From Eledone cirrhosa (lineage: Eukaryota), in NCBI GenBank assembly GCA_964016885.1, contig OZ024759.1, positions 21,514,001-21,578,000 on the forward strand: a stretch of 64,000 bases of DNA, given 5' to 3'. Of the stretch, positions 329-63,340 are shown in pieces. Both the position numbers and the translations under genes were made by a program. The notes under the pieces were generated by a model. The model was given only the letters and a program-made list of their open reading frames with translations. It searched no databases and was not told where the DNA came from. Each line of letters begins with the position of its first letter. Position 1 is the first letter of the stretch.

Positions 329-1503
329 AATCAAAGATTAACTGTTGGTCAGTATTAACTAGATCGATAGCATTTTAACCTAGGTAGCATAGAACCATTT
401 AGATTCTTCTTACGAAACTTCATTTACTTTCTTTGTTCGTTTTCAACACTTCATTTACATTCTTAGTTTAGTTACCTCCCTCGATGTAGGAAGGGTTTTC
501 TTGTTTCCTCTATTTAAATCTATATATAATAAAAGACGAAATAGAAAGAATTTAATACAGTTTAATATTCGTTTTATTGATAACGTATGTAAATGACATT
601 CATTTCCTTTTACAGATGTCCAGCCTTCAAGGTCATATGCTGTGTTATTTGTCGTAACAAGTGGGAATGGCGAAGTTTCTGTAAATAAAAAAGGTTACAT
701 TTTATATACAAATCATGTTCAGTTTATTTTGACAAAAATGAATAAAGAAATCAAGTAGAGGTTTACCAGTTGCCTCAAAAGGTAGATGGCCTCCGTAGTA
801 CTTTTACCTGTCACAAATCCAAACTATAGAGGTATGTAATGTTTTCTTTGCCCTATACACATACATGTTATTAGATGCATACTTTATGTCAACAACTCTC
901 ACACTTTGGATCTTGTGTTCATGTGGCTTTCTGGCACATCGTCACTCACTCAACATGCTTTCTTTGAAATTAAAACATAATTTACATACAAATAGTGTTA
1001 GCCCTTCTAAGAAACTAAACTAAACCATCTCGACACTATAGACATACTTTCTAACTCAAATTTCTCTCTATAAACCTCATTCTGTAGATCTTTCTTTAGA
1101 GACATACATATAAAACTATATACTCTCAACTAAGAAAAATATATAAACCTTCTTCTCTATACCTTTCCTTTTTTCTTCTAATAAACCTCTATACACAGCT
1201 ACATTTTATTATTTTCTCTATTTCTTTCACACGTGTCCTCTTCTATGTAGAGAGAAACCTTTGTGAGAATCGAACTCTCGATTGTAAAGTCCGACAACTT
1301 TACATAAATACTTTGCGCATTGATGTCCAATTATTTCGGCGCATGCGTACTTTAGTGAAAATTAAATGGTCGCATGAAGAACTACATGTTTTACAACGTG
1401 AATTTAAAAAAACGTTAAAAACTTGGATTTTACTAATTTTACGGAGGTAAACTAAAGCTTTATTTTATGTTGATCAATTTTATTGAAACACTTTCTGTTT
1501 ATT

Positions 1504-1614
1504 TCCCTCCATAATTGTTTCTACATTTGGCACAAGGCCAGCAAATTACCCAGTGCATTACTGGTACTTTATTTTATCGACCCCGTAAGGATGAAAGGCA
1601 AATCCCTCCATAAT
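1504..1614 (-). mobile_element. 5'-truncated tRNA-derived SINE inserted in the left palindrome arm, with 12-bp TSD
   Basis: 1516-1602 matches the 3' half of the SINE seen at 47105-47290. It is flanked by TCCCTCCATAAT at 1504-1515 and 1603-1614 and is absent from the mirror site near 5330. Confidence 0.85.
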
Positions 1615-2961
1615 GTCAGAAATAATTATTTAAACATTAGTTTTGTTTAGCCACATCTACATTCTAATGTAATACAACACCCTCCTCATACATATTTCTT
1701 GCTCATACGAAATAGTGTATTTTGTTAATTATTATTTAAGCTTGTAAATAATATATTTCTATTTCCCTTCGTGATATCCTCGTATTTTGTAATCAGAGGT
1801 TAACTGTTGATCCGTGTTAACTAGATCGATATCGCTTTAACTTTTAACCTACAATCATTTATATTCTTAGTTTCTTTCGTTAGAAACTTTATTTACATTT
1901 TCAGTTTCTTATTTTCCCACCAACAATATTATGTAGACGATAGTTTTGTTTAAGCTACTGCCACATTTCTAGGTCATATGAAATAGAATTTAGCTTATTT
2001 TCTATATTATTTAAATAATATATTTCTAGTTCCCTTCATGATATCCTCGTGTTTTGTTGTAAATTCGTTTTGGAGGACTTGCTCCTGTCACATATGATGT
2101 TGGTTGCTATATATTCTGGTTATTAATATTAACCAGGATCTGTTGTCTTTGGTCAGGGTGAATATTACACCCGTCACGTTTTGGCCATAAAACTTAAGTT
2201 TTGTACCCATTTTTTTTTTTTTAGATATCATGATCGTAATCAAAGATTAACTGTTGATTAATTTAGATATCATGATCGTATTCAAAGATTAACTGTTGGT
2301 CAGTGTTAACTAGATCGATATCACTTTAACCCTTTACATTCTTAGCTTCTTCTCACGAAACTTTATTTACGTTCTTTGTTCCTTTTCAACACTTCATTTA
2401 CATTCTTAGTTTCTTTTCTCGTCATTGAAAACAACTAAGAATGTAGATGAAGTTTCTAAAGAAAGAAATTTAGTTGTGTTTTTTTTTTTAGACATCATCA
2501 TCGTAATCGTAATCAGATCGATATTATTAACCAGATCGATACCGCTTTAACTTTTAATCTACGTAACAAGTAACCGTTTACAATCCTCTTTATGCATTTT
2601 ATACACTTCATCTACCTTCTTATTTCCTTTCTTTAAGAAACTTCATATAGATTCTTAGTTTCCTCTATTTAAATGTTTTTTTATAATAAAAGACAAAATT
2701 GGATGAATTTTATAAAGTTTAACATTCTTTTTATTGACAACGTCTGTAAATGACTTTTATTTCTTTTACAGATGTCCAATCATCGAGGTCATATGCTGTG
2801 TTGTTTGCCGTAACAAGTAGGAATGTCGTAGTTTTTGTTAATAAAGAAAGTTTACATCTTATATACGAATTGTGTTCAGTTTATTTTGCCAAAAATGAAT
2901 AAAGAAATCAAGAGTCTACAAGAAACTGAGTAAGACGCGCTATAAAGAACGTAAGTGTATA

Positions 2962-3240
2962 TGAAGTTTCTAAATAAAGAAACTAAGAGGTAGATAAAGT
3001 TTCTTGAAAGAAACTAAGAATGATGAAGTTTCTAAATAAAGAAACTAAGAGGTAGATAAAGTTTCTTGAAAGAAACTAAGAATGATGAAGTTTCTAAATA
3101 AAGAAACTAAGAGGTAGATAAAGTTTCTTGAAAGAAACTAAGAATGATGAAGTTTCTAAATAAAGAAACTAAGAGGTAGATAAAGTTTCTTGAAAGAAAC
3201 TGAGAATGATAAATTTTTTAAATAAAGAAACTAAGAATGT
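2962..3240. repeat. 62-bp tandem repeat (4 full copies; the mirror at ~3850-3975 has 2)
   Basis: Unit TGAAGTTTCTAAATAAAGAAACTAAGAGGTAGATAAAGTTTCTTGAAAGAAACTAAGAATGA starts at 2962, 3024, 3086 and 3148. Confidence 0.9.
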
Positions 3241-3300
3241 TTTTGAAATTGTCGAAAAATAGATCTATGAAACGTACCCTCTTTTTAAAATTTTTTTATT

Positions 3301-3760
3301 AAAGGGAGGTAACTCTGTAATATTTTTGAGAGAATTACCTCCCTTTGAAACACCTTCGTCACCGTCGTTACCACCGTCGGCACCTTCGTAACCGTCGTCA
3401 CCATTACCGCCGCCACCTGGTGGCGGAGGTAAAGATACCGACGACGACGAAGTTGCACCGCCGTCTTCGTCGGTATCTTTACCGCCGCCACCTGGTGGCG
3501 GAGGAAAAGATACCGACGAAGACGAAGGTGCACCGCCGTCTTCGTCGGTATCTTTTCCTCCGCCACCAGGTGGCGGCGGTAAAGATACCGACGAAGACGG
3601 CGGTGCAACTTCGTCGTCGTCGGTATCTTTACCTCCGCCACCAGGTGGCGGCGGTAATGGTGACGACGGTTACGAAGGTGCCGACGGTGGTAACGACGGT
3701 GACGAAGGTGTTTCAAAGGGAGGTAATTCTCTCAAAAATATTACAGAGTTACCTCCCTTT
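3301..3760. repeat. GC-rich nested-palindrome core, 75-bp period
   Basis: CCGCCACC-W-GGTGGCGG hairpins are centred at 3418, 3493, 3568 and 3643. They alternate with AAAGATACCGACG...CGTCGGTATCTTT hairpins. Flanking AAAGGGAGGTAA...TTACCTCCCTTT hairpins lie at 3301-3346 and 3715-3760. Confidence 0.9.
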
Positions 3761-6289
3761 AATAAAAAAATTTTAAAAAGAGGGTACGTTTCATAGATCT
3801 ATTTTTCGACAATTTCAAAAACATTCTTAGTTTCTTTATTTAAAAAATTTATCATTCTCAGTTTCTTTCAAGACACTTTATCTACCTCTTAGTTTCTTTA
3901 TTTAGAAACTTCATCATTCTTAGTTTCTTTCAAGAAACTTTATCTACCTCTTAGTTTCTTTATTTAGAAACTTCATATACACTTACGTTCTTTATAGCGC
4001 GTCTTACTCAGTTTCTTGTAGACTCTTGATTTCTTTATTCATTTTTGGCAAAATAAACTGAACACAATTCGTATATAAGATGTAAACTTTCTTTATTAAC
4101 AAAAACTACGACATTCCTACTTGTTACGGCAAACAACACAGCATATGACCTCGATGATTGGACATCTGTAAAAGAAATAAAAGTCATTTACAGACGTTGT
4201 CAATAAAAAGAATGTTAAACTTTATAAAATTCATCCAATTTTGTCTTTTATTATAAAAAAACATTTAAATAGAGGAAACTAAGAATCTATATGAAGTTTC
4301 TTAAAGAAAGGAAATAAGAAGGTAGATGAAGTGTATAAAGAAAGAAACTAGGAATGTACATAAAATGCATAAAGAGGATTGTAAACGGTTACTTGTTACG
4401 TAGATTAAAAGTTAAAGCGGTATCGATCTGATTACGATTACGATGATGATGTCTAAAAAAAAAACACAACTAAATTTCTTTCTTTAGAAACTTCATCTAC
4501 ATTCTTAGTTAGTTTCTTTTTTCGTCATTGAAAACAAGAAAGTAAATGAAGTGTTGAAAGGGAACAAAGAACGTAAATAAAGTTTCGTGAGAAGAAACTA
4601 AGAATGTAAAGGGTTAAAGTGTTATCGATCTAGTTAACACTGACCAACAGTTAATCTTTGAATACGATCATGATATCTAAATTAATCAACAGTTAATCTT
4701 TGATTACGATCATGATATCTAAAAAAAAAAAAATGGGTACAAAACTTAAGTTTTATGGCCAAAACGTGACGGGTGTAATATTCACCCTGACCAAAGACAA
4801 CAGATCCTGGTTAATATTAATAACCAGAATATATAGCAACCAACATCATGTGTGACAGGAGCAAGTCCTCCAAAACGAATTTACAACAAAACACGAGGAT
4901 ATCATGAAGGGAACTAGAAATATATTATTTAAATAATATAGAAAATAAGCTAAATTCTATTTCATATGACCTAGAAATGTGGCAGTAGCTTAAACAAAAC
5001 TATCGTCTACATAATATTGTTGGTGGGAAAATAAGAAACTGAAAATGTAAATGAAGTTTCTAACGAAAGAAACTAAGAATATAAATGATTGTAGGTTAAA
5101 AGTTAAAGCGATATCGATCTAGTTAACACGGATCAACAGTTAACCTCTGATTACAAAATACGAGGATGTCATGAAGGGAAATAGAAATATATTATTTACC
5201 AGCTTAAATAATAATTAACAAAATACACTATTTCGTATGAGCAAGAAATATGTATGAGGAGGGTGTTGTATTACATTAGAATGTAGATGTGGCTAAACAA
5301 AACTAATGTTTAAATAATTATTTCTGACATTATGGAGGGGAAATAAACAGAAAATGTTTCAATAAAACTGATCAACATAAAATAAAGCTTTAGTTTACCT
5401 CCGTAAAATTAGTAAAATCCAAGTTTTTAACGTTTTTTTAATTCACGTTGTAAAACATGTAGTTCTTCATGCGGCCATTTAATTTTCACTAAAGTACGCA
5501 TGCGCCGAAATAATTGGACATCAATGCGCAAAGTATTTATGTAAAGTTGTCGGACTTTACAATCGTGAGTTCGATTCTCACAAAGGTTTCTCTCTACATA
5601 GAAGAGGACACGTGTGAAAGAAATAGAGAAAATAATAAAATGTAGCTGTGTATAGAGGTTTATTAGAAGAAAAAAGGAAAGGTATAGAGAAGAAGGTTTA
5701 TATATTTTTCTTAGTTGAGAGTATATAGTTTTATATGTATGTCTCTAAAGAAAGATCTACAGAATGAGGTTTATAGAGAGAAATTTGAGTTAGAAAGTAT
5801 GTATATAGTGTCGAGATGGTTTAGTTTAGTTTCTTAGAAGGGCTAACACTATTTGTATGTGTATTATTTTTTTAATTTCAAAGAAAGCATGTTGAGTGAG
5901 TGACGATGTGCCAGAAAGCCACATGAACACAAGATCCAAAGTGTGAGAGTTGTTGACATAAAGTATGCATCTAATAACATGTATGTGTATAGAGCAAAGA
6001 AAACATTACATACCTCTATAGTTTGGATTTGTGACAGGTAAAAGTACTACGGAGGCCATCTACCTTTTGAGGCAACTGGTAAACCTCTACTTGATTTCTT
6101 TATTCAATTTTGTCAAAATAAACTGAACATGATTTGTATATAAAATGTAACCTTTTTTATTTACAGAAACTTCGCCATTCCCACGTGTTACGACAAATAA
6201 CACCGCATATGACCTTGAAGGCTGGACATCTGTAAAAGGAAATGAGTCATTTACATACGTTATCAATAAAAAGGATGAACCATTTTTAT

Positions 6290-6870
6290 GGAAGAGTGGC
6301 CCAATCTTACAGTGTACCAAAGCAGTTTCTTTTGCAAATTTAAAGGTTTGTTTTAATATTTTCTATGGCTTCTCCCATCCTTCTCATAGAAAAGTTTGAG
6401 TGTCATTTCAATTTCAAGTAGTGCCTATTTCAGATAGGGTTCCTTATTGTTTTTTCTGTTGTGCATTTAACTGTTTTGAGATCTGGGAATAAGATTTTTG
6501 TCTGTTGTTCTGGCACATGGTTTGTATTGTAATCATATTGAAAATGTGACTCTCTCAGACCACATGTCATTAGTTCTACTAAGTTATGGTCCGAGAAAAT
6601 CGTTAGTGTAACCTTTACATTGCGGATGAGCACTGTGTTATCTGTAAATCAGTTCCATAACATTCTCGCCTCTTGTTGGGAGGAGTACTGCTTGTTCCTG
6701 TGTCTTAGGGCCAGTATGGACTCCATCTGTCTCTGTTCGAGTGATGTCATTCCAGGGACGAGGTGGCCATAGGTAGGTTAAAAGTCTCACAGCAGCAGAA
6801 TGTTGAGACCCTGGTCGACTTTGTCAAGGACTTCTTCCATCCTTCTGAGGCTATCCTCAAACTTACCTTC
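6290..6870 (-). mobile_element. Degraded LINE APE-endonuclease fragment
   Basis: Minus-strand peptide ...TIFSDHNLVEL carries the SDH motif of LINE endonucleases. It abuts the right palindrome arm. Confidence 0.5.
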
Positions 6871-8689
6871 ATAACTTATATTTATCTCCATAACAATTGT
6901 TGTGTGTACAACAACCCCATCTTCACAACACCACCAATAATTGTCTTATGTATATACATAAGACAATTATTAATGCGTTAATAATTTTCTATATACATAC
7001 ATTCTATTAGATATACACCTTTCACAAAACACCAATTTCATGTAGATTTCCTTTTTCGACTTTTCAGAAAACATATATACATAAGACAATTATTAATGCG
7101 TTAATAATTGTCTTATGTATATAATAAGACAACCCACACATATGTGTACATATATTTATCTCCATAATAATTGTTCTGCATATATGTACAAAATACTAGT
7201 AGATTCTAAATTAATTTAAATATAGAAACGGAATAAGAGTGAGATAACACACTAAATATATTTTGAGACGTGTTACCTCCCTTTCCGTTTCTATATTTTT
7301 TTTTAAAAAATGAATAAAATTTTACCTATAAGTATACTAATTCTACTTAGTAGAATTGCAGCTTTGCGCGGCGATGCGCGTAGCGGTTCCGACTTTGTCG
7401 TCTACCTATGTATGGCGTGACCATTCTATGTGTCTGAAGTTCGAATCGTTACGAGGTCTTCGTGGCTTATGCAGCTGGGACTATTTCGCAGGCTGGCTAC
7501 TTGTCTGGCCTGCGTCTCGATTTTTGCTTAAAATTTTATTAGAATTATTTCCCCTTTTTTAAACTCTTCTTTTTTTGAAGTGACTTTTTTTCAAGTAACT
7601 TCCGGTTCTTTGGAAGAGAACCATTTTGGATATTACTTTCATGTAGAGAGGTATGTAATGTTTGCTTTGCTCTATACTAGGACTAATATATACACTTCAT
7701 GTCAATAACGCTCACATTTTGGATATTGTTTTCTATATACATACATTCTATTAGATATACACCTTACACAAAACACTAATTTCATGTAGATTTCATTTTT
7801 CGACTTTTCAGAAAACATACGTTTCATATAGAATTTTTCTCGACATTTCAAAATCACTAGTTTCATATAGATTTTTTTTCTACTCTTCAGAAAACATACA
7901 TTTCATTAGATACACACTTTGGTTATTGTGTTCATATTTTATTTTCTGTGGCTTTCTTTGAAATTTAAAACAAAATACACACAAATAGTGTTACCTCTTC
8001 TAAGAAACTAAATTAAGCCATCTCGACACTGTATACATGCTTTCGAAGAAATATTCACCTAATGAATCTTGATTTCTCGCACACGTGTCCCCTTAAACCT
8101 TGGATTAGAACCTTAGATACTTTCTTTACGTTCTTGGAAGACAGTTGGATGAGATACTTCTTGCTACATTCTTTGATACTCTTAGTTTCTTTCGTTAGAA
8201 ACTTCATTTACAATTTTCGTTTCTTTTTTCAACACTCTTAGTTTCCATCCAACAATATTATTTCTAGTTCATGATATCCTCGTGTATTGTTGTAAATTCT
8301 GGTTATTACTAATAACCTTTTGAGATCTGTCGTCTTAGGTCAGGGTGAATATTACACCCAAGGTTTTAATCTACGTAACTTTGATGTAGGAAAGGGTTTC
8401 CACTTTTTAAATGTATATATAATAAAAGAACAAAATTGGAAGAATTTTATAAAGTTTAATGTTCTTTTTATTTCCTTTTACAGATGTCCAGCCTTCGAGG
8501 TCATATGCTGTGTTGCCGTAAAAAATGTCGAACATCTTATACGAATCGTGTTCAGTTTATTTGACAAAAATGAATAAAGTTTACATATTATATACTATAC
8601 GAATTGTGTTCCGTTTATTTTGACAAAAAAAAAAAAAATAATAATGTATAGACAGTATTACCAGTGTAACAGTCGTCCAAAAGTGTCAT

Positions 8690-9430
8690 TAAGGGTTCGA
8701 ATCCAACAGTCGTCCAAGAATGGAGTCACCATCAAGGTTCCAAGTTTCAAGAACTTTTAAGTATGTAAAGAAAGCATCGAAGGTTCGAATCAAACTGTCT
8801 TCCAAGAATGAACCTTGAAGTATCAAAGGTTCGAATTTAAGTAAGTCAAAAATGTGGTAAGAATGTAATAAGAACCTTGAAGTATGTAAAGAAAGTATCA
8901 AAGGTTCGAATCTAAGTAAGTCAAAAATGTGGTAAGAAGTATCAAGGGTTAGAATGTAATAAGAACCTTGAACCATGTAAAGAAAGTATCAAAGGTTCGA
9001 ATCTAAGTCAAGAATGTAGTAAGAAGTATCAAGGGTTAGAATGTAATAAGAACCTTGAACTATGTAAAGAAAGTATCAAAGGTTCGAATCTAAGTCAAGA
9101 ATGTAGTAAGAAGTATCAAGGGTTAGAATGTAATAAGAACCTTGAACCATGTAAAGAAAGTATCAAAGGTTCGAATCTAAGTCAAGAATGTAGTAAGAAG
9201 TATCAAGGGTTAGAATGTAATTTGAACCATGTAAAGAAAGTATCAAAGGTTCGAATCTAAGTCAAGAATGTAGTAAGAAGTATCAAGGGTTAGAATGTAA
9301 TAAGAACCTTGAACCATGTAAAGAAAGTATCAAAGGTTCGAATTTAAGTCAAGAATCTAGTAAGAAGTATCAAGGGTTAGAATCTAAGATTCTAAGTTTA
9401 GTTAAAAAGGTTCGAATCTAACTGTCTTCC
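8690..9430. repeat. 87-bp minisatellite with GGTTCGAATC motifs
   Basis: Units start at 8976, 9063 and 9150. A shorter array is at ~13310-13560 and an inverted piece at ~17310-17440. Confidence 0.9.
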
Positions 9431-9504
9431 AAGAATGTTAATAACCTTCAAGGGTTTTAAGAATCTAGAAACTTCAAAAATATCATATTACAAAAAATTT
9501 CTAA

Positions 9505-9790
9505 TATGCAAATTAGAAATTATATTAAAAGAAATTTTTTCTAATATAATTTCCAAATTAGCATATTAGATATGCAAATTAGAAATTATATTAAAAGAAA
9601 TTTCTTCTAATATAATTTCCAAATTAGCATATTAGATATGCAAATTAGAAATTGTATTAAAAGAAATTTCTTCTAATATAATTTCCAAATTAGCATATTA
9701 GATATGCAAATTAGAAATTATATTTAAATAAATTTCTTCTAATATAATTTCCAAATTAGCATATTAAATTTCCAAATTAGCATATTAGAT
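9505..9790. repeat. 66-bp tandem repeat of quasi-palindromic units
   Basis: TATGCAAATTAG starts at 9505, 9571, 9637 and 9703. Each unit is nearly its own reverse complement. Confidence 0.9.
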
Positions 9791-9946
9791 TAAATCTTCG
9801 ACAAGTCTCACTATATATATATATGTCGACATATATATATATATACTATGTCGACATAGTAAATATATATATATATATATTTACTATGTCAAAGATTTTT
9901 TTTTCTTCTTTTTTTTTTTATCTAATTTGCATATTAAAAAAATTTC

Positions 9947-10103
9947 AAAAAAAAAGCTTCACGGTGGTCAGGGACGGGCCTTGCATCTATGTGCCGGCCC
10001 AGAATAGTCCCAGGCCGATGCAGTCGCACGCCACCACGAATAGAACGCCAGCCAGGGAGACTGGTAGTCCGAGACGCAGTTCGCACGCCACCGCGAAGGC
10101 CGC
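9947..10103 (-). ncRNA. Candidate ~150-nt structured Pol III-like RNA
   Basis: TATAAGTA lies ~31 nt upstream. A terminal stem CTTCGCGGTGG/CCACCGTGAAG is followed by a T9 run. An internal hairpin folds with G-U pairs only on the minus strand. No known family recognised. Confidence 0.3.
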
Positions 10104-11124
10104 AATTCTACTGAGTTAGATAGTGGTACTTATACGTACTTTTGAAAGATTTTGTTGAAAAAAAAATTAATATATGCAAACGGAACAAAGGGAAGTAATT
10201 TTGGATTTAAATATTTTTTTCATAAGACAATTATTAACGCATTGGTGGTGCTATGAAGATGGGGTTTTCGATGTCTGCCAACGGAGTGTTTAGGGAGTTT
10301 AATTGTGGTGGTTTATCTAAGTTCGATGTCTACGATGGAGAAGGAAGTTAGACATGTCTTTAAACCGCTTTGTTTACCCTCCCGCGAGAGGGTTTAAACA
10401 TGTTTACAGTCAAGCGATACTCATAGAAGATTATACAGCTTAGACATGTCTCTTTTAACCGTTTTCTTTTTTTTTGTCGACATTATGTACATGCCTTTGG
10501 CCCTCTAACCAAGCGTTGGCCACAGCGAAAGTCTTAGAAGCCAGACAGGGCACTGAGCTTTCGAGGGGGAGGAGGTATAGACTGACATATGTACAATCAC
10601 CAAATGATCCACAATTGAAGAACAAGACAGTCACCATCGGTTTTCGATCGACAACCATAAGTGCACCCCGTAACAATACACATATATCACCACATGACCA
10701 GCAACGCATTAACAATTTTGAAATGAAAAATATATTCACACCTGGATTACTTCCATTTATGCCGTTTACATATATCATTTTATCAACGAATAATTAAAAA
10801 AATCGATGTGACTAATACGTACCTTGATGGATTCCAGGTTTAAGGGTGTGCGATTGACACATGTTCTTGGGATGTTAAAAGACAGGTCAACCTTTTATAA
10901 GCTGCAAATGTGGGCCGTATGGAGGGACAGCAGACCTCACCTTATATCAGATGTGACACCTCTCAGTATGGAGAGATCGCTATCACAATATACTGTTAAA
11001 AGACAGGCCCAACCTTATATTAGATTTGACAGTGGGCCGTATCGAGGGGCAGCTACCTTAATATACTAATATACCTAATATCAGGGACGTTAAAAGACAA
11101 ACACAACCTTAGATGTAACAGTAG

Positions 11125-11935
11125 AAATGTAGCAGTAGCTTAAACAAAACTATCGTCTACATAATATTGTTGGTGGGAAAATAAGAAACTAAAAATGTAA
11201 ATAAAGTTTCTAACGAAAGAAACTAAGAATATAAATGATTGTAGGTTAATAGTTAAAGCGATATCGATCTAGTTAACACGGATCAACACTTAACCTCTGA
11301 TTACAAAATACGAGGATATCATGAAGGGAAATAGAAATATATTATTTACAAGCTTAAATAATAATTAACAAAATACACTATTTCGTATGAGCAAGAACTA
11401 TTTATGAGGGGGGTGTTGTATTACATTAGAATGTAAGATGTGGCTAAACAAAACTAATGTTTAAATAATTATTTCTGACATTATGGAGGGGAAATAAACA
11501 GAAAATGTTTCAATAAAACTGATCAACATAAAATAAAGCTTTAGTTTACCTCCGTAAATTAGTAAAATCCAAGTTTTTAACGTTTTTTTAATTCACGTTG
11601 TAAAACATGAAGTTCTTCATGCGGCCATTTAATTTTCACTAAAGTACGCATGCGCTGAGATAATTGGACATCAATGCGCAAAGTATTTATGTAAAGTTGT
11701 CGGACTTTACAATCGTGAGTTCGATTCTCACAAAGGTTTCTCTCTACATAGAAGAGGACACGTGTGAAAGATATAGAGAAGATAATAAAATGTAGCTGTG
11801 TATAGAGGTTTATTAGAAGAAAAAAGGAAAGGTATAGAGAAGAAGGTTTATATATTTTTCTTAGTTGAGAGTATATAGTTTTATATGTATGTCTCTAAGG
11901 AAAGATCTACAGAATGAGGTTTATAGAGAGAAATA
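11125..11935. repeat. Third copy of palindrome arm sequence
   Basis: Near-identical to ~4973-5783 in the same orientation. Confidence 0.9.
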
Positions 11936-14650
11936 CATATATTTATCTCCATAATAATTGTTCTGCATATATGTACAAAATACTAAAATTTTACCTATAA
12001 GTATACTAATTTTACTTAGTAGAATTGCAGCTTTGCGCGTAGCGGTTCTAACTTTGTCGTCTACCTATGTATGGCGTGACCATTCTATGTGTCTGAAGTT
12101 CGAATCGTTACGAGGTCTTCGTAGTTTATGCAGCTGGGACTATTTCGCAGGCTGGCTACTTGTCTGACCTGCATCCCGGACCTCGCGAACAATCGATTTT
12201 TGCTCAAAATTTTATTAGAATTATCTCCCCTTTTTTAAACTCTTCTTTTTTTGAAGTGACTTTTTTTCAAGTAACTTCCGGTTCTTTGGAAGAGAACCAT
12301 TTTGGATATTACTTTCATGTAGAGAGGTATGTAATGTTTGCTTTGCTCTATACTAGGACTAATATATACACTTCATGTCAATAACGCTCACATTTTGGAT
12401 ATTGTTTTCTATATACATACATTCTATTAGATATACACCTTTCACAAAACACCAATTTCATGTAGATTTCCTTTTTCGACTTTTCAGAAAACATACGTTT
12501 CATATAGATTTTGTTTCTACTCTTCAGAAAACATACATTTCATTAGATACACACTTTGGTTATTGTGTTCATATTTTATTTTCTGTGGCTTTCTTTGAAA
12601 TTTAAAACTAAATACACACACAAATAGTGTTACCTCTTCTAAGAAACTAAATTAAGCCATCTCGACACTGTATACATGCTTTCGAAGAAATATTCACCCA
12701 ATGAATCTTGATTTCTCGCACACGTGTCCCCTTAAACCTTGGATTAGAACCTTAGATACTTTCTTTACATTCTTGGAAGACAGTTGGATGAGATACTTCT
12801 TGCTACGTTCTTTGATACTCTTAGTTTCTTTCGTTAGAAACTTCATTTACAATTTTCGTTTCTTTTTTCAACACTCTTAGTTTCCATCCAACAATATTAT
12901 TTCTAGTTCCCTTCATGATATCCTCGTGTATTGTTGTAAATTCTGGTTATTATTAATAACCTTTTGAGATCTGTCGTCTTAGGTCATGGTGAATATTACA
13001 CCCTAGGTTTTAATCTACGTAACTTTAATGTAGGAAAAGGTTTCCTCTTTTTAAATGTATATATAATAAAAGAACAAAATTGGAAGAATTTTATAAAGTT
13101 TAATGTTCCTTTTATAGATGTCCAGCCTTCGAGGTCATATGCTGTGTTGCCGTAAAAAATGTCGAACATCTTATACGAATCGTGTTCAGTTTATTTGACA
13201 AAAATGAATAAAGTTTACATATTATATACGAATTGTGTTCCGTTTATTTTGACAAAAAAAAAAAAATGTATAGACAGTATTACCAATGTAACAGTCGTCC
13301 AAAAGTGTCATTAAGGGTTCGAATCCAAGAATGGAGTAACCATCAAGGTTCCAAGTCTCAAGTATGTAAAGAAAGCATCGAATCAAACTGTCTTCCAAGA
13401 ATGAACCTTGAAGTATCGAAGGTTCGAATCTAAGTAAGTCAAAAATGTGGTAAGAAGTATCAAGGGTAAGAATGTAATAAGAACCTTGAACCATGTAAAG
13501 AAAGTATCAAAGGTTCGAATCTCAGTCAAGAATGTAGTAAGAAGTATCAAGGGTTAGAATCTGTCTTCCAAGAATGTTAATAACCTTCAAGGGTTTTAAG
13601 AATCTAGAAACTTCAAAAATATCATATTAAGAGAAATTTCTTCTAGTATAATTTCCAAATTAGCATATTAAAAGAAATTGCGAAAAAAAGTTCTTCGCGG
13701 TGGTCAGGGACGGGCCTTGCATCGATGCGAAGGCCGCAATTCTAGTGAGTTAAATAGTGGTACTTTTGAAAGATTTTGTTGAAAAATAAATTAATATATG
13801 CAAACGGAACAAAGGGAAGTAATTTTGGATTTAAATATTTTTTTCATAAGACAATTATTAACGCATTGGTGGTGCTATGAAGATGGGGTTTTCGATGTCT
13901 GCCAACGGAGTGTTTAATTGTGGTGGTTTATCGAAGTTCGATGCTGACCCTGTGATGACTGCAAGACGACGGGACGCAAATTAGACATGTCTCTAAATCT
14001 TTGTTTACAGTCACGCGATATCCATAGAAGATTATTTAACCGCTCTTTTGGCGTACATGCGTTGGCCACAAAGTCTTACAGGACATTGAGCCTTCGAGAG
14101 GGAAAGAGACTGAGGTGTGAAATACTGCCCGTACAGTCACCAAAGGAGGTATAGACTGATATTGACAACCATAAGTGCACCCCCGTAACAACACACACAT
14201 ATCACCAGCAATGCATTAACAATTTACAAATTAAAAATATATTAACACCTGAATTACTTCCATTTATGCCGTTTACATATATCATTTTAGCAACGAATAT
14301 TTAAAAAGATCGATACAAATGTGACTAATACGTACCTTGATGGATTCCAGGTTTAAGGACACATGACCCCCAGTTCTTGGGATGTTAAAATACAAGTCAA
14401 CCTTTTATAAGCTGCCTTAGATCTAGACGGTAAGGAGGCAGTGTATATCCTTTCATATAATTGTGCGCCGTATGGAGGTATAGCTACCATAATAGACTAT
14501 AAAGGGACGTTAGATGTAACTGTAGGCCGCGTGGAAGGACAGAATACTGTATATCAGTGACGTCAAAAGACAGACCCATCCTTAGATGTAACTGTGGATG
14601 GTAAGGAGGGACAGCTACCACAATATACTGGAAGACAAACACAACCTTAC
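11935..14650. repeat. Segmental repeat unit A, second copy (with internal deletions)
   Basis: Collinear with ~7140-11120. Confidence 0.85.
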
Positions 14651-14869
14651 ATATAACAGCTGCCGTGTTATAGGAATACGGTAAGAGACTTCCCCTGGAT
14701 AGGACGCCAGTCGATAGCAAGATTAAAGTCTGTCTCAAATTCGGAGGTTCATTAGACCGGTGTTTATCCGAGTCGGTCGGCTGAAAATACAAGAACCTCA
14801 CCTGGACAGAACGCCAGTCTATCACAGAGTTACACCCCGTGATACTACGTGGGGAAAGTTAATCGATAT

Positions 14870-15505
14870 CCAGAATACAAGACTGACTCAATTACAGATA
14901 CAGGCTTCCAGAATAGATGCTGTCTACTAAATTTCCCTCATGGGTCAACTGAAGTTTATGATGACCCTTGTCCAAGATGTCACTCTCTCACCTCATGATT
15001 GAGAATTCACGTGGGGAAAGTTAATCGATATCGAACTATTAACACTGATCAATACTTCAACCATGATTACCAGAAAAACAGACGTACACTGTTCTCGGAC
15101 GATTAAAGATGAAAACAAAACTTAGGTGTATAGAACTAAATTTACGACATTACAAGACGGAAGATAAGATTCCCCCGTCGACAAAGTCAAATGGGAGAAA
15201 AAGGGTTTAAAACATAGATGGTGAACAGCTGGACTTATTGTGTATAACTCGGAAAGATCACAAGAGGTGGGCAACATTCGAAACGACCACGTTCGATTAG
15301 TAATTGGGAATGAGTTAGAATACGTAAACAAGAGAACAACTACGAAGGTGTAAATAGTATATCATACGAAAGAGACTAAGAGGGAAAGATTTACAAAAAT
15401 ACCTCAACATAGTATAGAAATCTACGTTACCTTTCAGAAAGCTGCTATTGTCCATAGTTAAACCATTTAGCAAGAGTTTTTGTAAAGCTTGTAAAATTCT
15501 ACAAG
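14870..15505. repeat. ~630-bp direct duplication (second copy ~16472-17105)
   Basis: Identical ORFs at 15122..15331 and 16724..16933, offset 1602 bp. Confidence 0.92.
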
Positions 15506-15719
15506 GGGGGGGGGGGGGGGCATCTACCACAGTATACTGTATAACAGGGACGTTAAAAGACAGACCCAAACTTATATTACATTTTTTTTATTACGTTTAA
15601 CTGTGGTTCTTATGGAGGGAGAGCTACCACAATATGCTGTAAATAAGGGACGTTTAAAGGACAAACACATCCTTAGATGTAACAGTATATCATGTTAAAA
15701 GGCAGACCCAGCTCTCTAG

Positions 15720-16200: not shown

Positions 16201-17659
16201 TTAACGAAGGACATGGACATCATCATCAACGTTTAACGTCTATCTTCCACGCTAGCATGGATTAGACGAGTCTGTCCCATTTAGAGGCAAGTTCGGTGGG
16301 GTGACCGGTCATATATATCTAAGCAGGATCGAAGTCAATTGCAGCATATATATAAACTTTATTGGCATATTGCAATCGTATCAATATCGATCATCTCAGG
16401 GTAACGTAACATATGTGTGTGGGAGTGGCGATTGAATAACTGCAATCGTTAAAACACCCGAGTAAACCTCTCCAGAATACAAGACTGACTCAATTACAGA
16501 TACAGGCTTCCAGAATAGATGCTGTCTACTAAATTTCCCTCATGGGTCAACTGAAGTTTATGATGACCCTTGTCCAAGATGTCACTCTCTCACCTAATGA
16601 TTGAGAATTCACGTGGGGAAAGTTAATCGATATCGAACTATTAACACTGATCAATACTTCAACCATGATTACCAGAAAAACAGACGTACACTGTTCTCGG
16701 ACTATTAAAGATGAAAACAAAACTTAGGTGTATAGAACTAAATTTACGACATTACAAGACGGAAGATAAGATTCCCCCGTCGACAAAGTCAAATGGGAGA
16801 AAAAGGGTTTAAAACATAGATGGTGAACAGCTGGACTTATTGTGTATAACTCAGAAAGATCACAAGAGGTGGGCAACATTCGAAACGACCACGTTCGATT
16901 GGTAATTGGGAATGAGTTAGAATACGTAAACAAGAGAACAACTACGAAGGTGTAAATAGTATATCATACGAAAGAGACTAAGAGGGAAAGATTTGCAAAA
17001 ATACCTCAACATAGTATAGAAATCTACCTTACCTTTCAGAAAACTGCTATTGTCCATTGTTAAACTATTTAGCAAGAGTTTTTATAAAGCTTGTAAAATT
17101 CTACAAAATGACGGCCATGTTTTTTTTCTTGATTTGGATGTAGTAGAATGCGCAAGCGCAAGATTTAGAAACTCAGTGCGCATGTTCCAAGTATCCTGGC
17201 CATGCTACAGCACCATCTAAACAGCCTGGCCATGTTACAGCATTATCTAAACAGCCCGGCCATGCTACAGCACTAGAAGTTAATCTATAATTACGAATAT
17301 ATGTAATTCTTGGAAGGCAGTTAGATTCGAACCTTCGATACTTTCTTTACATACTTGAAGGTTCTTATTACATTCTTGATACTTAGAACCCTTGATGGTT
17401 ACTACATTCTTGGATGAGTGTTGGATTTGAACTCTCAATGATTTTTGTTCAAAAATTAAAAAAAACACTTTTTCCACATTATTTAGAAACTTCCTATACA
17501 TTCTTAGTTTCTTTCTTAATCTACATTCCTGAGTTTCTTTCTTTAGAAACTTCATATACATTCTCAGTTTCTTTCTTGAAGAATGACATGATGCTGAATG
17601 AAAACTAAAGCAATATATACAAACACACGCCGACCACAACTAAATATGGAATGATACGG

Positions 17660-18660
17660 TGGTCAGAATAGAGACTGCGTTTCCCCGGAGGATAGCAAGG
17701 GAGACGCGTTGGAAAAGCCACTCCAACTCGCGGCTGGCCAGCTCAGCGCCTATGGTGGTGAGTAGGGAGGTATCCCTAGAGCCAAGGACACCAGAAGTCT
17801 CCACTGCCAGGGGTACAACCGCAAACCTGTCGGAAAGCGACCGGTATTTGAGGAGTTTAGCCTCCTCAGCCCAAAGTGCAGCAGAACCCGGGTAAATCGC
17901 AAACTGCGGCTGCAGAAAGTGTCGGTGTAAGTGGCATCCCAGACGAGGGGTTTGCCACCGCAGAACGGGAAGATGGTCATGCCATCTAGCCTTTTGCCGT
18001 CCCCTCGGTCCAGCTGGGAATGGAAGCCTGCAGCGTCCAAGCCATGCTTTATGACCTCGTTGAGGGCAGCATGGCGTGGAAGGCGGCCGGCACTGTGGCG
18101 ACAGGAAAGCGGGTGGAGGCCGAAAGGATCAACATTGGTGTGGCTGGCAGATCCGGAGGCTGAGCCTCAAGGAAACGCCAACGCGCGTTTATTACTGTCT
18201 AGCTGTGTGCCAGTGGAGGAGGGCAGGGCATGGAGCCAGGCACCACTGTGGGGTTTGGAGCCCGCACGAAAACAGGCATCCCAAGTGCTTTTGGGGGACT
18301 TGACGTCAACAGGGAGAGGAGGAGGGACATCTACTGGGCTGAGCCCCACGTCTCTCGTTCTCTGAACATAGAGGGTTCTATTGTGTTTAGAAGAACCCTG
18401 CTGACGAGAATGCGGCTACCGACGAAAGATACGCCGGCAAAGCCAGTGCGATCGGGGACCGGAGGCCAAGGCCGCCATACCTGACAGATAAAGTGGCCCG
18501 TTGCCATCCAATGTCGTCAAACTTAACGTTGCATATCACCCCGGCTGCTTCTCGGATACAAGTATCGAGGTCAGCGAGGAGAGATGGGTGAGTGTAGTAC
18601 GGAGCGCTGCGAAGGGTATAGAGGAGCTTCGGCATGGCGAAGCAGTTCCTCAACAGTACG
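17660..18660 (-). mobile_element. CRE-like (restriction-like endonuclease) non-LTR retrotransposon fragment
   Basis: Frameshifted peptides PKLLYTLRSAP, GGLGLRS, SGAWLHALPS and DGKRLDGMTIFPFCGGKPLVWDAT (R-x-DG...WD-x-T RLE motif). Confidence 0.7.
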
Positions 18661-18819
18661 TCTTGCTCAGTTTCTTGATTTTTTTAAATTCATTTTTGTC
18701 AAAATAAACTGAACACAATTCGTATATAAAATGTAAACTTTATTCATTTTTGTCAAAATAAACTGAACACGATTCATATATGTTAACTTTCTTTATTAAC
18801 AGAAACTTCGCCATTCCAA

Positions 18820-33000: not shown

Positions 33001-35825
33001 AAATAACATAGTATCTTACCTAGTCCATACTGTTCTGCTTCTTCATTGCACTTTTCTTCATCATCCAATGTATTGATTGATTCCAAAAACTGCAGGTAAT
33101 TGCGACAGTGAAAATCAGCTAGTTCATCTAATGTTGCTTTTCTTGGAGACACAATCCTTGAAAATATAATATAGATAGGTACAACTGGTCCTTTTTTAGG
33201 GGACACAATCCTTTAAAATATAATATAGGTAGGTACAATTGGTCCTTATTTTTGGAGATACAATCCTTTCAAATATAATATAGGTAGGTACAACTGGTCC
33301 TTTTTTTGGGAGACACAATCCTTTAAAATATAATGTAGATCGGTACAACTGGTCCCTTTTTTGTGGGGACACAATCCTTTAAAATATAATGTTGCTTTTT
33401 TTTCAGAGACAGAATGTATTTAAATTTGAAGGAATGAGAATGTAGAACAAAATAATGGTTTCTGATTTAGGCAAAAAGCCAACAATTTGGGAGGGGAAAG
33501 TCGATCATATCAACCCAGGTGCATTACTGGTATTTTATTTTGTTGACCCCATAAATATAAAATGCAAAGATAACCCCGGCAGGATTTGAACTCAGAACAT
33601 AAAGAGCCGTAGCTACATGCAACAAAGCATGTTGTCCGATGCTTTACTGATACTGCCAATCCACCAATCCCACTTTACACACAAGGCCAGCAAATTTTAA
33701 GGGGAAGAGCAAGTTGATTTTCTCAACCCCAGTACGTAAGTGTTACTTTTTTTTATCAACTCCGAAAGGATGAAATTCAAAGATGATTTCAGCAGGATTC
33801 GAACAGAGAACGGTGTAACTAAACACCACAAAACATTGCGTCTGATGCTCTACCGATTCTACCAATTCACTGCGGTTATAAGACAAAATGATAAAAAGTA
33901 TTAATATTTAAAAAAAACAAAAAAAAATCACAGTAACATGAAGTACCAGTAATGCATCGGTGTAAATTTAATTGACTGTCCTCTCCCTGAAAATGTTGGT
34001 CTCGTGCCTAAATCAGAAATCCTTATATTCAAATAACCAAATTACCTCATTTGTTTTGTTAAGCCGTATGCTTCAATCAAACCATGAACCAGTTTACCCT
34101 GGAAGTAAAGAACCAAAATATGATATTCAGACATTAGATACGGGAGACAATGAAGGACGAGACATGTGATGATTACACTTATATATATATTTAATATAGA
34201 AATGGCTTCTACAGGACTAGAACTGTTTCATTCAGGAGAAATCATCAGGAAAGCCATTTCTATATTAAATATTTATACTCTGCTATGTATTGAGTACCTT
34301 ACTTACTGTGGTTACCTCTGATTGAACCCGGGATAAACATATATATATATATATATGTGGCAACATGAATGGAACCGTTTTTTTTCTCTAAAAGCATTTT
34401 TTCCGATTCTGCCCCGCCTATCCCTCATTCTTTCTTCTGAAGAAGGACTAGCATCCGAAATGTTAAGACCCTCTTCCTGCTATTTTAAGCGTTAACCTAA
34501 TATATTCCTTCCAAATACTGTACCAATTGGGTTGTTATTTCTGTTTACCTTTTACATACATATATATATATATAATGTGTGAGTGTATTTATACAGGGGT
34601 TAGCTAAAAAGTCCATAGGTTGACCCAGATACTCTCATGGAATGACTAAATGAGGTTTATTTTTCAACATAGTTCCTGGAAAGAAACAATGCAGTTATTA
34701 ATAAGAGTTGAAATTAATGCATGTAAGATTTCACAGATCTAGCATCACTCTTTTATAGCCAGCCTATGAACTTAGAACCAACATATATTCGCGGAATCGT
34801 AAATATCTTCCGCGATTTTTTAATGAATCTTTTTCATGGCAATATATATTTTTTTACACTTTTTAATACTAAATTATTAATAACAATATACCGTATTTGC
34901 TGGCCTATACTTTGTTATGTTTTGACATTTATAGGCACTTTTATGGACCACGTCCAATATTTGTGGTTTTTCACTCTTTGCAGGTGCTCTAGGAATGTAA
35001 CCTTCGCGAATACTGGGAGACAACTGTATATATTATATGTGTGTGTGTGTGTCCCACTTCCATACATGCATCCAGTGAAGCCTCCAAAAAGTGCCTCCTG
35101 AAAAGTGGTTGTAAAGTGGGCGTGTAGGTGTCCCAACAAAAAGCACCCAGTACTCACTGTAAACGAGGTTGGCACTAGGAAGGGCATCCAGCTGTAGAAA
35201 CCAAGCCAAATCAGTTCTGTATGAGCATGACATGGTCACTTGACCTAGCATTGCTCACAACAGGATAACTCGTCTAACCCATGCTAGCGTAAAAATGTAA
35301 AGCTGTGCTAGAACTCTTTCTGTTACTTTCATGACCTAGTCCATCAGCTTTATACCTCTATAGTTTCCTCTATCTAGCGCATCTCCTTTACCCTTGTAGC
35401 AGTTGACAATGACACTGCTATGTCAATCATTTGGTGTGACTCCATCTAGTGTTACTTGATTAACAATATGCGTTGTTATGGTGACCCAGATGCTCGGCAC
35501 CTATACCTGATGGACCAGTTGCTTTCCCAGTCTTCATATCCTTAATTGCTTTACTTACTACACTGCTGCTGACTTGTATTGCTGGGCCCTCTATAGGGTC
35601 CACTTGGGGTAGGGTCTCTCTCTCCCATGCATTCTCCTCATTTGGTAATCTTTCATAATGGCTCTTCCATGCAGATTTCTTCTCGGCGCATGTGAGGCCA
35701 AGCGCATATATACATATAAATACATACATACATATATATATACACACACACACACATATATATACATATATACACACACATATATATATGTGTGTTATAT
35801 ATATATATAACACACATATATATAT

Positions 35826-35868
<43 letters not shown>

Positions 35869-36823
35869 CACATATATACACACACATACACATATATACA
35901 CACACATACACATATATATATATACATACATATATATATATACACACACATATTTATACATATACACATACACATATTTATACATATATACATACACATA
36001 TTTATATATATATACATACACATATTTATATATATATACATACACATATTTATATATATATACATACACATATTTATATATATATACATACACATATTTA
36101 TATATATACACATACACATATATATATATACACATACACATATATATACACACACATATATATACACACACATATATATACACACACATATATATACACA
36201 CACATATATATATATACACACATATATATATATACACACATATATATATATATATACACACATATATATATATACACACATATATATATATACACACATA
36301 TATATATATACACACACACATATATATACACACATATATATATATACACACACACATATATATACACACATATATATATATATACACACACACACATATA
36401 TATATATATACACACATATATATATATACACACACATATATATATATATACACACATATATATATATATACACACATATATATATATATACACACATATA
36501 TATATATATACACACATATATATATATATACACACATATATATATATATACACACATATATATATATACACATATATATATATATATATACACATATATA
36601 TATATATATATACACACATATATATATATACACATATATATATATATATATATACACACACATATATATATACACACATATATATATATATATATACACA
36701 CATATATACACACACATATATATATATATACACACATATATATACACACATATATATATACACATATATACACACATATATATATACACATATATATATA
36801 CACATATATATATACACATATAT

Positions 36824-36868
<45 letters not shown>

Positions 36869-37771
36869 TATATACACACATATATATATACACACATATA
36901 TATATACACATATATACATATACACATATATATATACACATATATACATATACACATATATATATACACATATATACATATACACATATACACATATATA
37001 CACACACATATATATATATATATACATATATACACACACATATATATATATACACATATATATACACACACACACACATATATTATACACACACATATAT
37101 ATATATACACACACACACATATATATAGTTTAATAAATAAACAAAGAACAAAAAACAGAAAAACGAAGAGGCAGTACAAATGATATTAGTATATATATAT
37201 ATAATATATATATACACACACACACATGAAAAGAAGGTACATGGGCGTGTCACGATCAAAGTCTACTAAATGAGGAGACTGAATGGGATGAAGATAGTTT
37301 CCCCAACAGAGGGAACGGCTGTGCAAGTTACTAGTAGTATAGTAAGGCAACCAAAGATATGAAGAAAGTAAAATGTAGCCGGACCTTCGGGGATAGATGC
37401 TGAAAGCGTCTGGAATGGTGGGACACACCCTAGCCATCCGTATTGTAAACGAAGTAATACAAAATGGGGTCATACACAATGACTGGTGGAAATGAAAAAT
37501 AAAATGTGGAAAGAAAAACAGAAGAGAAAAAAAATCCTTCGTTTGTCTCGCTTACTCGTTGTCGAACTTTTAGACAGAAGTTGGACCATTGTAGCAGATG
37601 ATCACTGAAAATATAGGCAACCTTATGAGGAATCTCATCAATTTTCTGTGAATTCTTTTCGTTGCAACATTCTTTCAGTACATTGGACGAATGAGGGTTG
37701 TTCTCAAGACCAGATTCCGTTGTTGATATTGTTGTTGTTGTCGTGTTGAAATCAAAGTTCACAGTAGCCAT
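23311..37771 (-). CDS. HDAC8: Histone deacetylase 8 (class I HDAC), 11 exons, 418 aa
   Basis: Exons 37771-37556, 34098-34046, 33156-33020, 31795-31648, 30807-30695, 29727-29650, 28663-28555, 27660-27488, 25779-25685, 24946-24841 and 23339-23311. All introns are GT-AG, phases are consistent, and the total is 1257 nt. Motifs [41 protein letters not shown] and GGGGY are intact, and the intron positions match vertebrate HDAC8. Confidence 0.95.
23845..24195 (-). mobile_element. Two tandem tRNA-derived SINEs (Nin/Deu-like central domain)
   Basis: The reverse complement has an A box, a GAGTTCAAATCC B box and GCCTTTCATCCTTACGGGGTCGATAAAA. Further copies lie near 25822, 27127, 30527, 33454, 33678, 40795, 44680, 45143 and 46560. 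Confidence 0.75.
26510..27125. repeat. ~63-bp minisatellite in HDAC8 intron 8
   Basis: Recurring AAGGTCCCTCTCCTACAAAAGACTGCCCTGTTGGTCACTGTAGATATACTCAG units, ~9-10 copies. Confidence 0.9.
27768..28050. mobile_element. pogo/Tigger-like MITE
   Basis: Terminal inverted repeats GTGGAACCTC...GAGGTTCCACTG|TA. A homologous copy is at 62766-63077. Confidence 0.65.
31918..32261 (+). mobile_element. Full-length tRNA-derived CORE-type SINE
   Basis: A box TGGCTTAGTGG and B box GAGTTCAATTC. CORE-like GTGTTGTTTCCTTGAGCAAGACACTT. The 3' part is shared with the RTE LINE 3' UTR and ends in a (GAT)n tail. Confidence 0.8.
32300..32735 (-). mobile_element. CRE-like retrotransposon fragment
   Basis: Homologous to 17660-17990 ([17 protein letters not shown]). 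Confidence 0.65.
33143..33400. repeat. 54-56-bp tandem repeat derived from the HDAC8 exon-3 acceptor
   Basis: GACACAATCC motif at 33148, 33202, 33257, 33312 and 33368. Confidence 0.85.
34187..34272 (-). ncRNA. Type I hammerhead ribozyme-like motif in HDAC8 intron 1
   Basis: Minus strand reads stem I - CUGAUGA - stem II (UUC/GAA) - GAAA - stem III (CAG/CUG) - UA - stem I'. Position 10.1-11.1 is U.U instead of G-C. Confidence 0.5.
35460..35700 (-). mobile_element. RTE LINE fragment
   Basis: [39 protein letters not shown] closely matches the ORF at 48366..50726. Confidence 0.85.
35706..37126. repeat. ~1.4-kb compound (TA)n/(CA)n microsatellite
   Basis: Almost pure alternating purine-pyrimidine tract; it is the source of the long spurious Y/I/C/V/H/T ORFs. 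Confidence 0.97.

Positions 37772-44470: not shown

Positions 44471-63340
<18,870 letters not shown>

Follow-up and report, generated by a model that had tools for sequence, protein, structure and literature searches.

A 5.7-kb inverted duplication in Eledone cirrhosa with a hairpin-ladder centre that may have been renewed by fold-back repair

How might a palindrome of several kilobases persist in an animal genome if its arms meet without a spacer? Long spacer-less palindromes are expected either to disappear or to become asymmetric at the centre. The question is raised by a stretch of 64,000 nucleotides from Eledone cirrhosa (contig OZ024759.1, positions 21,514,001 to 21,578,000; referred to in full as the window, with positions counted from its first letter), near the start of which two inverted arms of 2959 nucleotides (nt; 572–3530) and 2741 nt (3531–6271) form an inverted duplication of 5.7 kb in total. 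If the structure is real, several fold-back repairs at a single site are recorded here in layers, together with a gradient of arm identity, and the locus provides two natural tests, i.e. whether a tip that is GC-rich and slightly mismatched suffices for a heritable multi-kilobase palindrome, and whether arms are kept alike by breakage and snap-back copying from the centre or by ordinary gene conversion.

The two arms pair as inverted copies in three BLAST blocks (98.2%, 95.2%, and 99.3%), and they share an exact inverted match of up to 465 nt, compared with at most 20 nt in 50 shuffles. In a global arm-versus-arm alignment, we counted 25 substitutions in 2705 aligned columns and, inside 572–6271, 12 gaps comprising a 98-nt segment and two extra units of a 62-bp repeat present only in the left arm, a 25-nt segment present only in the right arm, an 18-nt left-only segment, and small ones. 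BLAST, alignment, and shuffles thus bear out the palindrome with diverged arms that had been proposed in an earlier, sequence-only reading of this DNA. The 98-nt gap is accounted for by a truncated short interspersed element (SINE) and its 11-nt target duplication, the copies of which lie at 1505–1515 and 1604–1614. The right arm (near 5337) and a third partial copy of the arm lack the insertion, in agreement with the left-arm insertion, target duplication, and empty right-arm site already described; longer SINE copies that are 90–97% alike lie elsewhere in the window (23840, 24013, 46910, 47106, and 58831). Left and right arms differ by exactly two units of the 62-bp repeat, as the same reading had noted, but the measured copy numbers are 4.5 and 2.5 rather than four and two. 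With the third copy as outgroup, private changes over 812 columns number five in the left arm, three in the right arm, and 13 in the third copy; the two arms differ at 8 of the 812 positions, fewer than separate either of them from the third copy. Because both arms carry private changes, the arms changed after splitting (alleles would show the same), and the claim that this is not a simple mirrored read stands.

Further evidence comes from the centre, where a self-complementary tandem array (3404–3657) encloses the axis. This array belongs to a ladder of half-units, numbered h0 to h7 from left to right, in alternating orientation; TRF calls part of this ladder a 75-bp repeat with 3.4 copies. 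The GC content is 60% in this core versus 30% in the surrounding arms. Half-units h5, h6, and h7 equal h2, h1, and h0, respectively, h0 is the beginning of ordinary flanking sequence, and all eight matches to the ladder motif in the window fall within 3404–3657. The half-unit immediately to the right of the axis, h4, is a hybrid; among its variable columns, 9 and 12 equal h3 while 32–33 equal h2. If the left arm had merely been mirrored at 3530, the centre would be symmetric, whereas the observed centre is this hybrid. Because the trace predicted for fold-back priming matches h4, and because a plain mirrored read or contig would not give it, the hybrid argues for fold-back priming. Differences per 37 nt across successive axes decrease inward (9, 5, 4, and 2). 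At the axis itself, the pairs 3525/3536 and 3526/3535 are mismatched and carry the h2 state, and the central 12 nt form a quasi-palindrome; the next mismatch is 344 pairs out, there are three mismatches among the first 446 pairs from the axis, and 14 of the 20 central bases are G or C. Hence, the suggestion of a spacer-less centre is correct in the sense that the axis contains no foreign DNA but needs amending in that pairs 5 and 6 do not match. The ApaLI site (GTGCAC) reported at the centre is confirmed at 3528, and it is the only one before position 10661. The position of the axis inside the tandem array, that of 572 inside a repeat module, and the third arm copy (11122–11934) are features beyond those in the earlier reading.

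Divergence between the arms is unevenly distributed along their length. Divided into thirds from the centre and with the central pair left out, the arms differ by 1, 12, and 10 substitutions (Kolmogorov–Smirnov test against a uniform distribution, p=0.017), and a comparison of the inner zone (1/798) with the outer zone (22/1897) gives p=0.005 in Fisher's test with a boundary that was picked after looking at the data. The near-identity of the inner third suggests a younger tract that was recopied from the other arm and, together with the inward decrease across the ladder axes, points to repeated re-folding.

Our favored explanation, in which we place somewhat better than even confidence, is that the inverted duplication was made, and then renewed more than once, by fold-back (snap-back) repair at the GC-rich hairpin ladder. 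In this scenario, the ladder would require approximately three nested fold-backs and one slippage, with the oldest event outermost, and an earlier palindrome would already have been present at the site. A break just to the right of the axis would allow the 3' end, ending between 3537 and 3555, to fold onto the left half-unit; the folded 3' end would then prime synthesis on h3 and copy the left side, leaving the hybrid h4 as its trace. The latest event would have recopied only the inner 0.8–0.95 kb before the new strand re-annealed with the pre-existing right arm, or else conversion between the arms would have had the same effect; meanwhile, the outer arms would have drifted by ~1.2% and the left arm would have gained its SINE. 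A secondary join to a long interspersed element (LINE) would have healed or truncated the right arm. The arms and the centre, as far as sequence features can tell, are those of a fold-back inversion, i.e. an axis in which hairpin asymmetry is kept, near-identical arms, and a secondary distal join, and the fold-back origin put forward earlier fits the hybrid ladder centre. Finally, the GC-rich, slightly asymmetric tip would extrude cruciforms poorly, and the palindrome would persist. Cruciform-driven instability requires central AT-richness and symmetry (PMC1851657), and because the centre described here has a GC-rich tip with two mismatches, such persistence is plausible. We also note that the palindrome is non-coding and that nothing here suggests a host function.

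The outer ends of the arms are informative about the proposed secondary join. The mirror ends at 572/6271 rather than continuing. On the left, 572 is inside a repeat module and not at an element end (498–755 matches 2652–2912), and family sequence continues to the start of the window; on the right, the breakpoint is placed at 6271–6277, where the arm meets a LINE fragment. LINE insertions are usually truncated at the 5' end, and because this fragment is broken on its 3' side in the middle of an open reading frame (ORF), the break points to a rearrangement join. Three of five HMMER matches to the LINE piece have endonuclease–reverse transcriptase (RT) domains and one of the five is without a family; tblastn places endonuclease–RT proteins at 6912–6553 (best E 4e-18). 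By eye, the LINE frames reach the junction along the closest match and stop short of the position of the RT domain in another match. The LINE repeat normally continues past the break point in contigs and reads. The top-scoring HMMER match, a repetitive bacterial Ig-domain protein, was dropped because tblastn back to the window failed to recover it, and word-index protein searches with the LINE piece and with 14843–15106 gave nothing. Comparison of both outer ends for a target duplication gave no direct repeat of at least 5 nt and no common 5-mer. Beyond the LINE fragment lies a patchwork with two palindromes (Table 1) and two patches identical to sequence elsewhere, one of 91 nt (12405–12495) and one of 52 nt (11934–11985); the palindrome at 7074–7123 extends a motif that is also present at 10222. 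These small palindromes and 100%-identical patches all lie less than 1 kb from the right junction, a pattern like that of the snap-back or templated repair in PMC5728401.

Independent information on the ladder is available from short-read data, consisting of three contig sets (X1–X3) from one sample, which may be the source of the assembly, and three runs (X4–X6) of restriction site-associated DNA sequencing (RAD-seq). Contigs drop variants, a filter removes records, and depth is a poor count of copies. On 3240–3575, 31 contigs of X1 and 46 of X3 were placed; in each set, two of them matched over part of their length and left a loose end. One of these four ends is a scrap of poly-T, two belong to a diverged arm type, and the fourth consists of nine letters from a ladder variant; hence, among these 77 contigs, none of the four shows an exit from the ladder into unrelated DNA. 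The contigs show the arm as the only ladder exit, and none of them spans the whole structure. Depth is 156–157 at the ladder entrance, 63 for a further variant (X1), and 93 for the second arm type, which likewise leads only into the ladder; exact right-arm contigs have depths of 47–88 and the LINE flank 23–30, a ratio of ~2–3. A 121-nt contig (depth 24.5) extends over half-units of alternating orientation and across the position of the axis; it has six differences, including those at 3526 and 3535, where the pair is still mismatched with different bases. Because all exits seen are the same arm, each ladder is likely flanked by inverted arms, and contig depth indicates, roughly, 3–4 ladder centres and 5–8 arm copies per flank unit. 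In the contigs, the array with its adjoining arm is represented by at least two sequence types, and no match was found in the collections searched, giving some support to the suggestion that the family is undescribed. None of the RAD-seq runs had reads covering the centre; one partial read from X5 and two from X6 fell on a T-rich stretch.

Several observations weigh against repeated fold-back repair. The number and order of the events are reconstructed rather than observed. The ladder gradient is based on 37-nt units with few differences, and the comparison of h1 with h3 (three differences) shows that slippage also shaped the ladder. The inner zone still differs by two repeat units and one substitution between the arms. 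The depth ratio of arm to flank is equally expected from two mis-joined haplotypes, and we therefore rejected it as support for two arms per flank. Moreover, an exact match to this centre was not found among the 16 of 77 records listed, a contig across 6271/6272 was not found among those or among the 23 of ~2990 records listed, and the allele of the sample at 4329–4504 matches neither arm. These points bear on the case that the sequence-only reading had itself named as its refutation, i.e. an assembly mis-join, in which two haplotypes or paralogs were placed head-to-head via the self-complementary ladder or a fold-back read and the inner zone is chimeric or collapsed. An arm divergence of ~1% and a SINE that is present or absent could be allelic, a 2:1 depth ratio is compatible with this idea, no listed contig covers the exact centre or the right junction, and fold-back reads make up ~0.55–0.6% of genomic Oxford Nanopore Technologies (ONT) reads in PMC12870357. 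However, according to the same paper such reads are almost absent from HiFi data, a point that would count if the assembly was built from data of that type; a pure fold-back-read artefact predicts identical arms and a perfect mirror, which the hybrid centre, the SINE, and the differences in repeat number and substitutions contradict. A two-unit repeat difference in the inner zone and a mirror that halts at 572/6271 are likewise not expected of a fold-back read. A mis-join also needs another real continuation of the ladder, and the loose ends provide none. Weakened in this way by the hybrid centre and the lack of another ladder exit, a mis-join is in our estimation unlikely, though still to be reckoned with; if it occurred, the locus would usefully caution against trusting this assembly at self-complementary minisatellites.

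Other explanations accept the palindrome and differ in its origin. It could be a decayed non-autonomous foldback transposon of the Mutator-like kind, with the ladder as middle domain and its termini lost here. Long modular arms, a variable tandem repeat, the lack of an ORF or other coding capacity, and the presence of several copies recall foldback elements such as Tetris, FB, and Galileo; however, complete Tetris copies have 8–9-bp target duplications and a middle domain (PMC4079207), while the structure here has no matched termini, no target duplication of 8–10 bp (or of at least 5 nt), and no distinct middle domain, and its tandem repeats adjoin the centre rather than an outer domain. In addition, the left arm extends beyond 572, the right one terminates at a broken LINE, related copies (7304–11120 and 11974–14633) share arm modules yet are not mirror elements, and no transposase Pfam match was found in ten frames covering 1000–1700, 3392–3793, 6272–6960, and 14650–15550, a part of the region. 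The foldback transposon proposed in the earlier reading is thus unsupported at this copy, and we regard it as quite unlikely. A more economical variant of the favored explanation, a single fold-back in a pre-existing ladder without later resetting, would account for the hybrid h4 and the broken outer join in one event, and the gradient, being moderate in the test without a chosen boundary, would be due to chance or a local difference in mutation rate. The ladder itself, however, is read here as nested fold-backs of differing age, and this variant leaves the gradients unexplained. The second arm type, leading only into the ladder, indicates that other loci probably have mirror arms as well; we find this variant improbable. 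The least probable to us is that a linear replicon with hairpin ends, for example a large DNA virus or a plasmid-like element, left an integrated replication (dimer) junction here, with the mismatches as a flip/flop bubble and the 20-kb region as its decayed body. The inverted arms around an imperfect, mismatched hairpin tip, the tandem repeats near the axis, and an axis common to several copies resemble concatemer junctions and hairpin telomeres of poxviruses (PMC8956199), the variant contig keeps a mismatch at 3526/3535 with different bases, and the family fills 1–20300 and does not extend beyond. By contrast, the tip is GC-rich while poxvirus hairpins are AT-rich, the ladder has multiple axes, and the region has other snap-back scars that bear no relation to a terminus. 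In the pieces searched, neither viral nor replicon proteins (polymerase, resolvase, or capsid) were found, with low sensitivity for decayed frames, and exact-pattern scans gave no locus in viral contigs and none in metagenome contigs. The proposal of a hairpin-junction relic therefore lacks gene evidence.

Repeated fold-back repair at the ladder has parallels in other systems. In Saccharomyces cerevisiae, fold-back inversions are primed by single-stranded DNA hairpins and fixed by secondary rearrangement (PMC7467729). They are similar to the present structure in their hairpin-forming centre with a short loop, a hotspot at a long stem, which the ladder here would provide at each of its axes, and a distal secondary rearrangement; the present structure differs in being apparently heritable, in an animal genome, and kilobases long, with a nested-ladder centre, aged arms, and a centre common to other copies. 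In Drosophila, snap-back synthesis-dependent microhomology-mediated end joining begins with a 3' end that primes on an inverted repeat close by; after copying, the strand unwinds and re-anneals (PMC5728401), leaving short palindromes and templated patches at junctions as observed at 6936–7198. However, the tracts described there are short and near the break, whereas the tract suggested here would be ~0.8 kb or more, and the enzyme is not identifiable from sequence. The human palindromes PATRR11, PATRR17, and PATRR22 are likewise nearly spacer-less germ-line palindromes, the stability of which is set by the centre; they are 0.2–0.6 kb in length with 1–3 G/C in the central 20 bp, compared with 5.7 kb, 14 G/C, and two mismatched pairs here (PMC1851657). 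The poxvirus junctions described above differ further in that no linked viral genes were found here (PMC8956199). Our literature search, which covered mostly open-access papers, turned up no account of this repeat and none of nested fold-back ladders in cephalopods.

Sex-chromosome palindromes, in which arm-to-arm gene conversion keeps the arms alike, resemble the present structure in arms that copy each other and differ from it in their kilobase spacers, much longer arms, and genes. More tentatively, and as a possibility rather than an expectation, we suggest that the ladder is a heritable palindrome-centre module that allows spacer-less palindromes with kilobase arms to survive in the germ line of an animal, renews them by snap-back at the axis nearest to a break, and has spread, as a palindrome, to several loci. 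Such a module family would fall outside both the transposons that have termini and the palindromes of sex chromosomes that bear genes; in the extreme case, it would be a fossil of the telomere junction of some unknown replicon with hairpin ends. Several copies would permit comparisons within and between loci.

Table 1 Coordinates of the inverted duplication and associated features in the window
Feature	Position	Strand	Description
Left arm	572–3530	+	AT-rich, 30% GC over 572–3347; non-coding repeat-family sequence with internally duplicated modules
Truncated SINE piece, left arm only	1516–1602		87 nt, 11-bp target duplication; derived state
62-bp tandem repeat	2961–3236	+	4.5 copies; right-arm counterpart at 3825–3976 has 2.5 copies
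Short sub-central hairpin	3301–3346	+	Mirrored at ~3715–3760; predicted −12.5 kcal/mol (DNA)
Central ladder	3381–3680		Eight 37-nt half-units h0–h7 in alternating orientation, seven symmetry axes, 60% GC
Axis 3530/3531	3525–3536		Two mismatched pairs 5–6 nt out; putative remnant of priming hairpin
Right arm	3531–6271	−	Inverted copy of 572–3530, shortened at outer end
Hybrid half-unit h4	3531–3567	−	Axis-side columns have parent-ladder state, distal columns are h3 copy; switch between 3537 and 3555
LINE fragment	6272–6912	−	AP-endonuclease region of ORF2, cut before RT region; broken 3' side meets right-arm end
Patchwork past junction	6936–7198		36-nt perfect palindrome at 6936–6971; 50-nt palindrome at 7074–7123; two identical patches
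Third partial arm copy	11122–11934	−	Right-arm orientation, 97.8% alike, SINE site empty; outgroup

The GC-rich core (3348–3713) has a triplet-like wording, is Gly/Asp-rich on one strand, and stays open for 134 codons on both strands; a captured coding fragment may be its source. A Pfam match was absent for the 134-amino acid Gly/Pro/Asp frame across the centre, which we read as a by-product of triplet-like symmetric DNA. Rfam searches of 1–21000 gave 16 matches up to E 0.1, all under the gathering scores; those of microRNA type on the ladder were attributed to hairpin shape only. Among the ten frames searched with Pfam there was one sub-threshold match (DUF4894), a PDB match with E 1.3 was taken as chance, and the best ESM Atlas scores of 0.79 are a lead at most.

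The arm-related family occupies 1–20300 in rearranged copies and was not found further on in the window. A hairpin similar to the sub-central one lies at 7218–7298. Direct copies (~85–90% alike) of a related element that shares arm modules occupy 7304–11120 and 11974–14633; this element runs through its hairpin without mirror arms and includes an 87-bp repeat with six copies (8856–9387). At 9495–9794 there is a second self-complementary array, in which a 66-bp AT-rich imperfect hairpin unit is repeated 4.4 times and of which the sister copy at ~13620–13680 has one unit, and the TA-rich sequence at 9812–9890 consists of alternating inverted pieces around two SalI-type axes, resembling a snap-back scar. 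A direct duplication of 636 nt (14869–15504 and 16471–17106; 98.4%) contains coding-like frames broken by stops, for which Pfam, word-index protein, and ESM Atlas searches found no homolog.

Outside of these repeats, GC-richer decayed frames on the minus strand at 17640–18683 may correspond to the C-terminal region of a non-LTR (long terminal repeat) retrotransposon, which they resemble in motifs. Two long open RT-like frames of 846 and 842 codons (48186–50723 on the plus strand and 51951–54476 on the minus strand) face each other with 75% identity; we take them to be of RTE type, and they are more likely two separate insertions than one palindrome. A strand-biased AT/AC microsatellite of 1.4 kb is located at 35706–37125, with a GC skew of −1.0 in 36001–37000.

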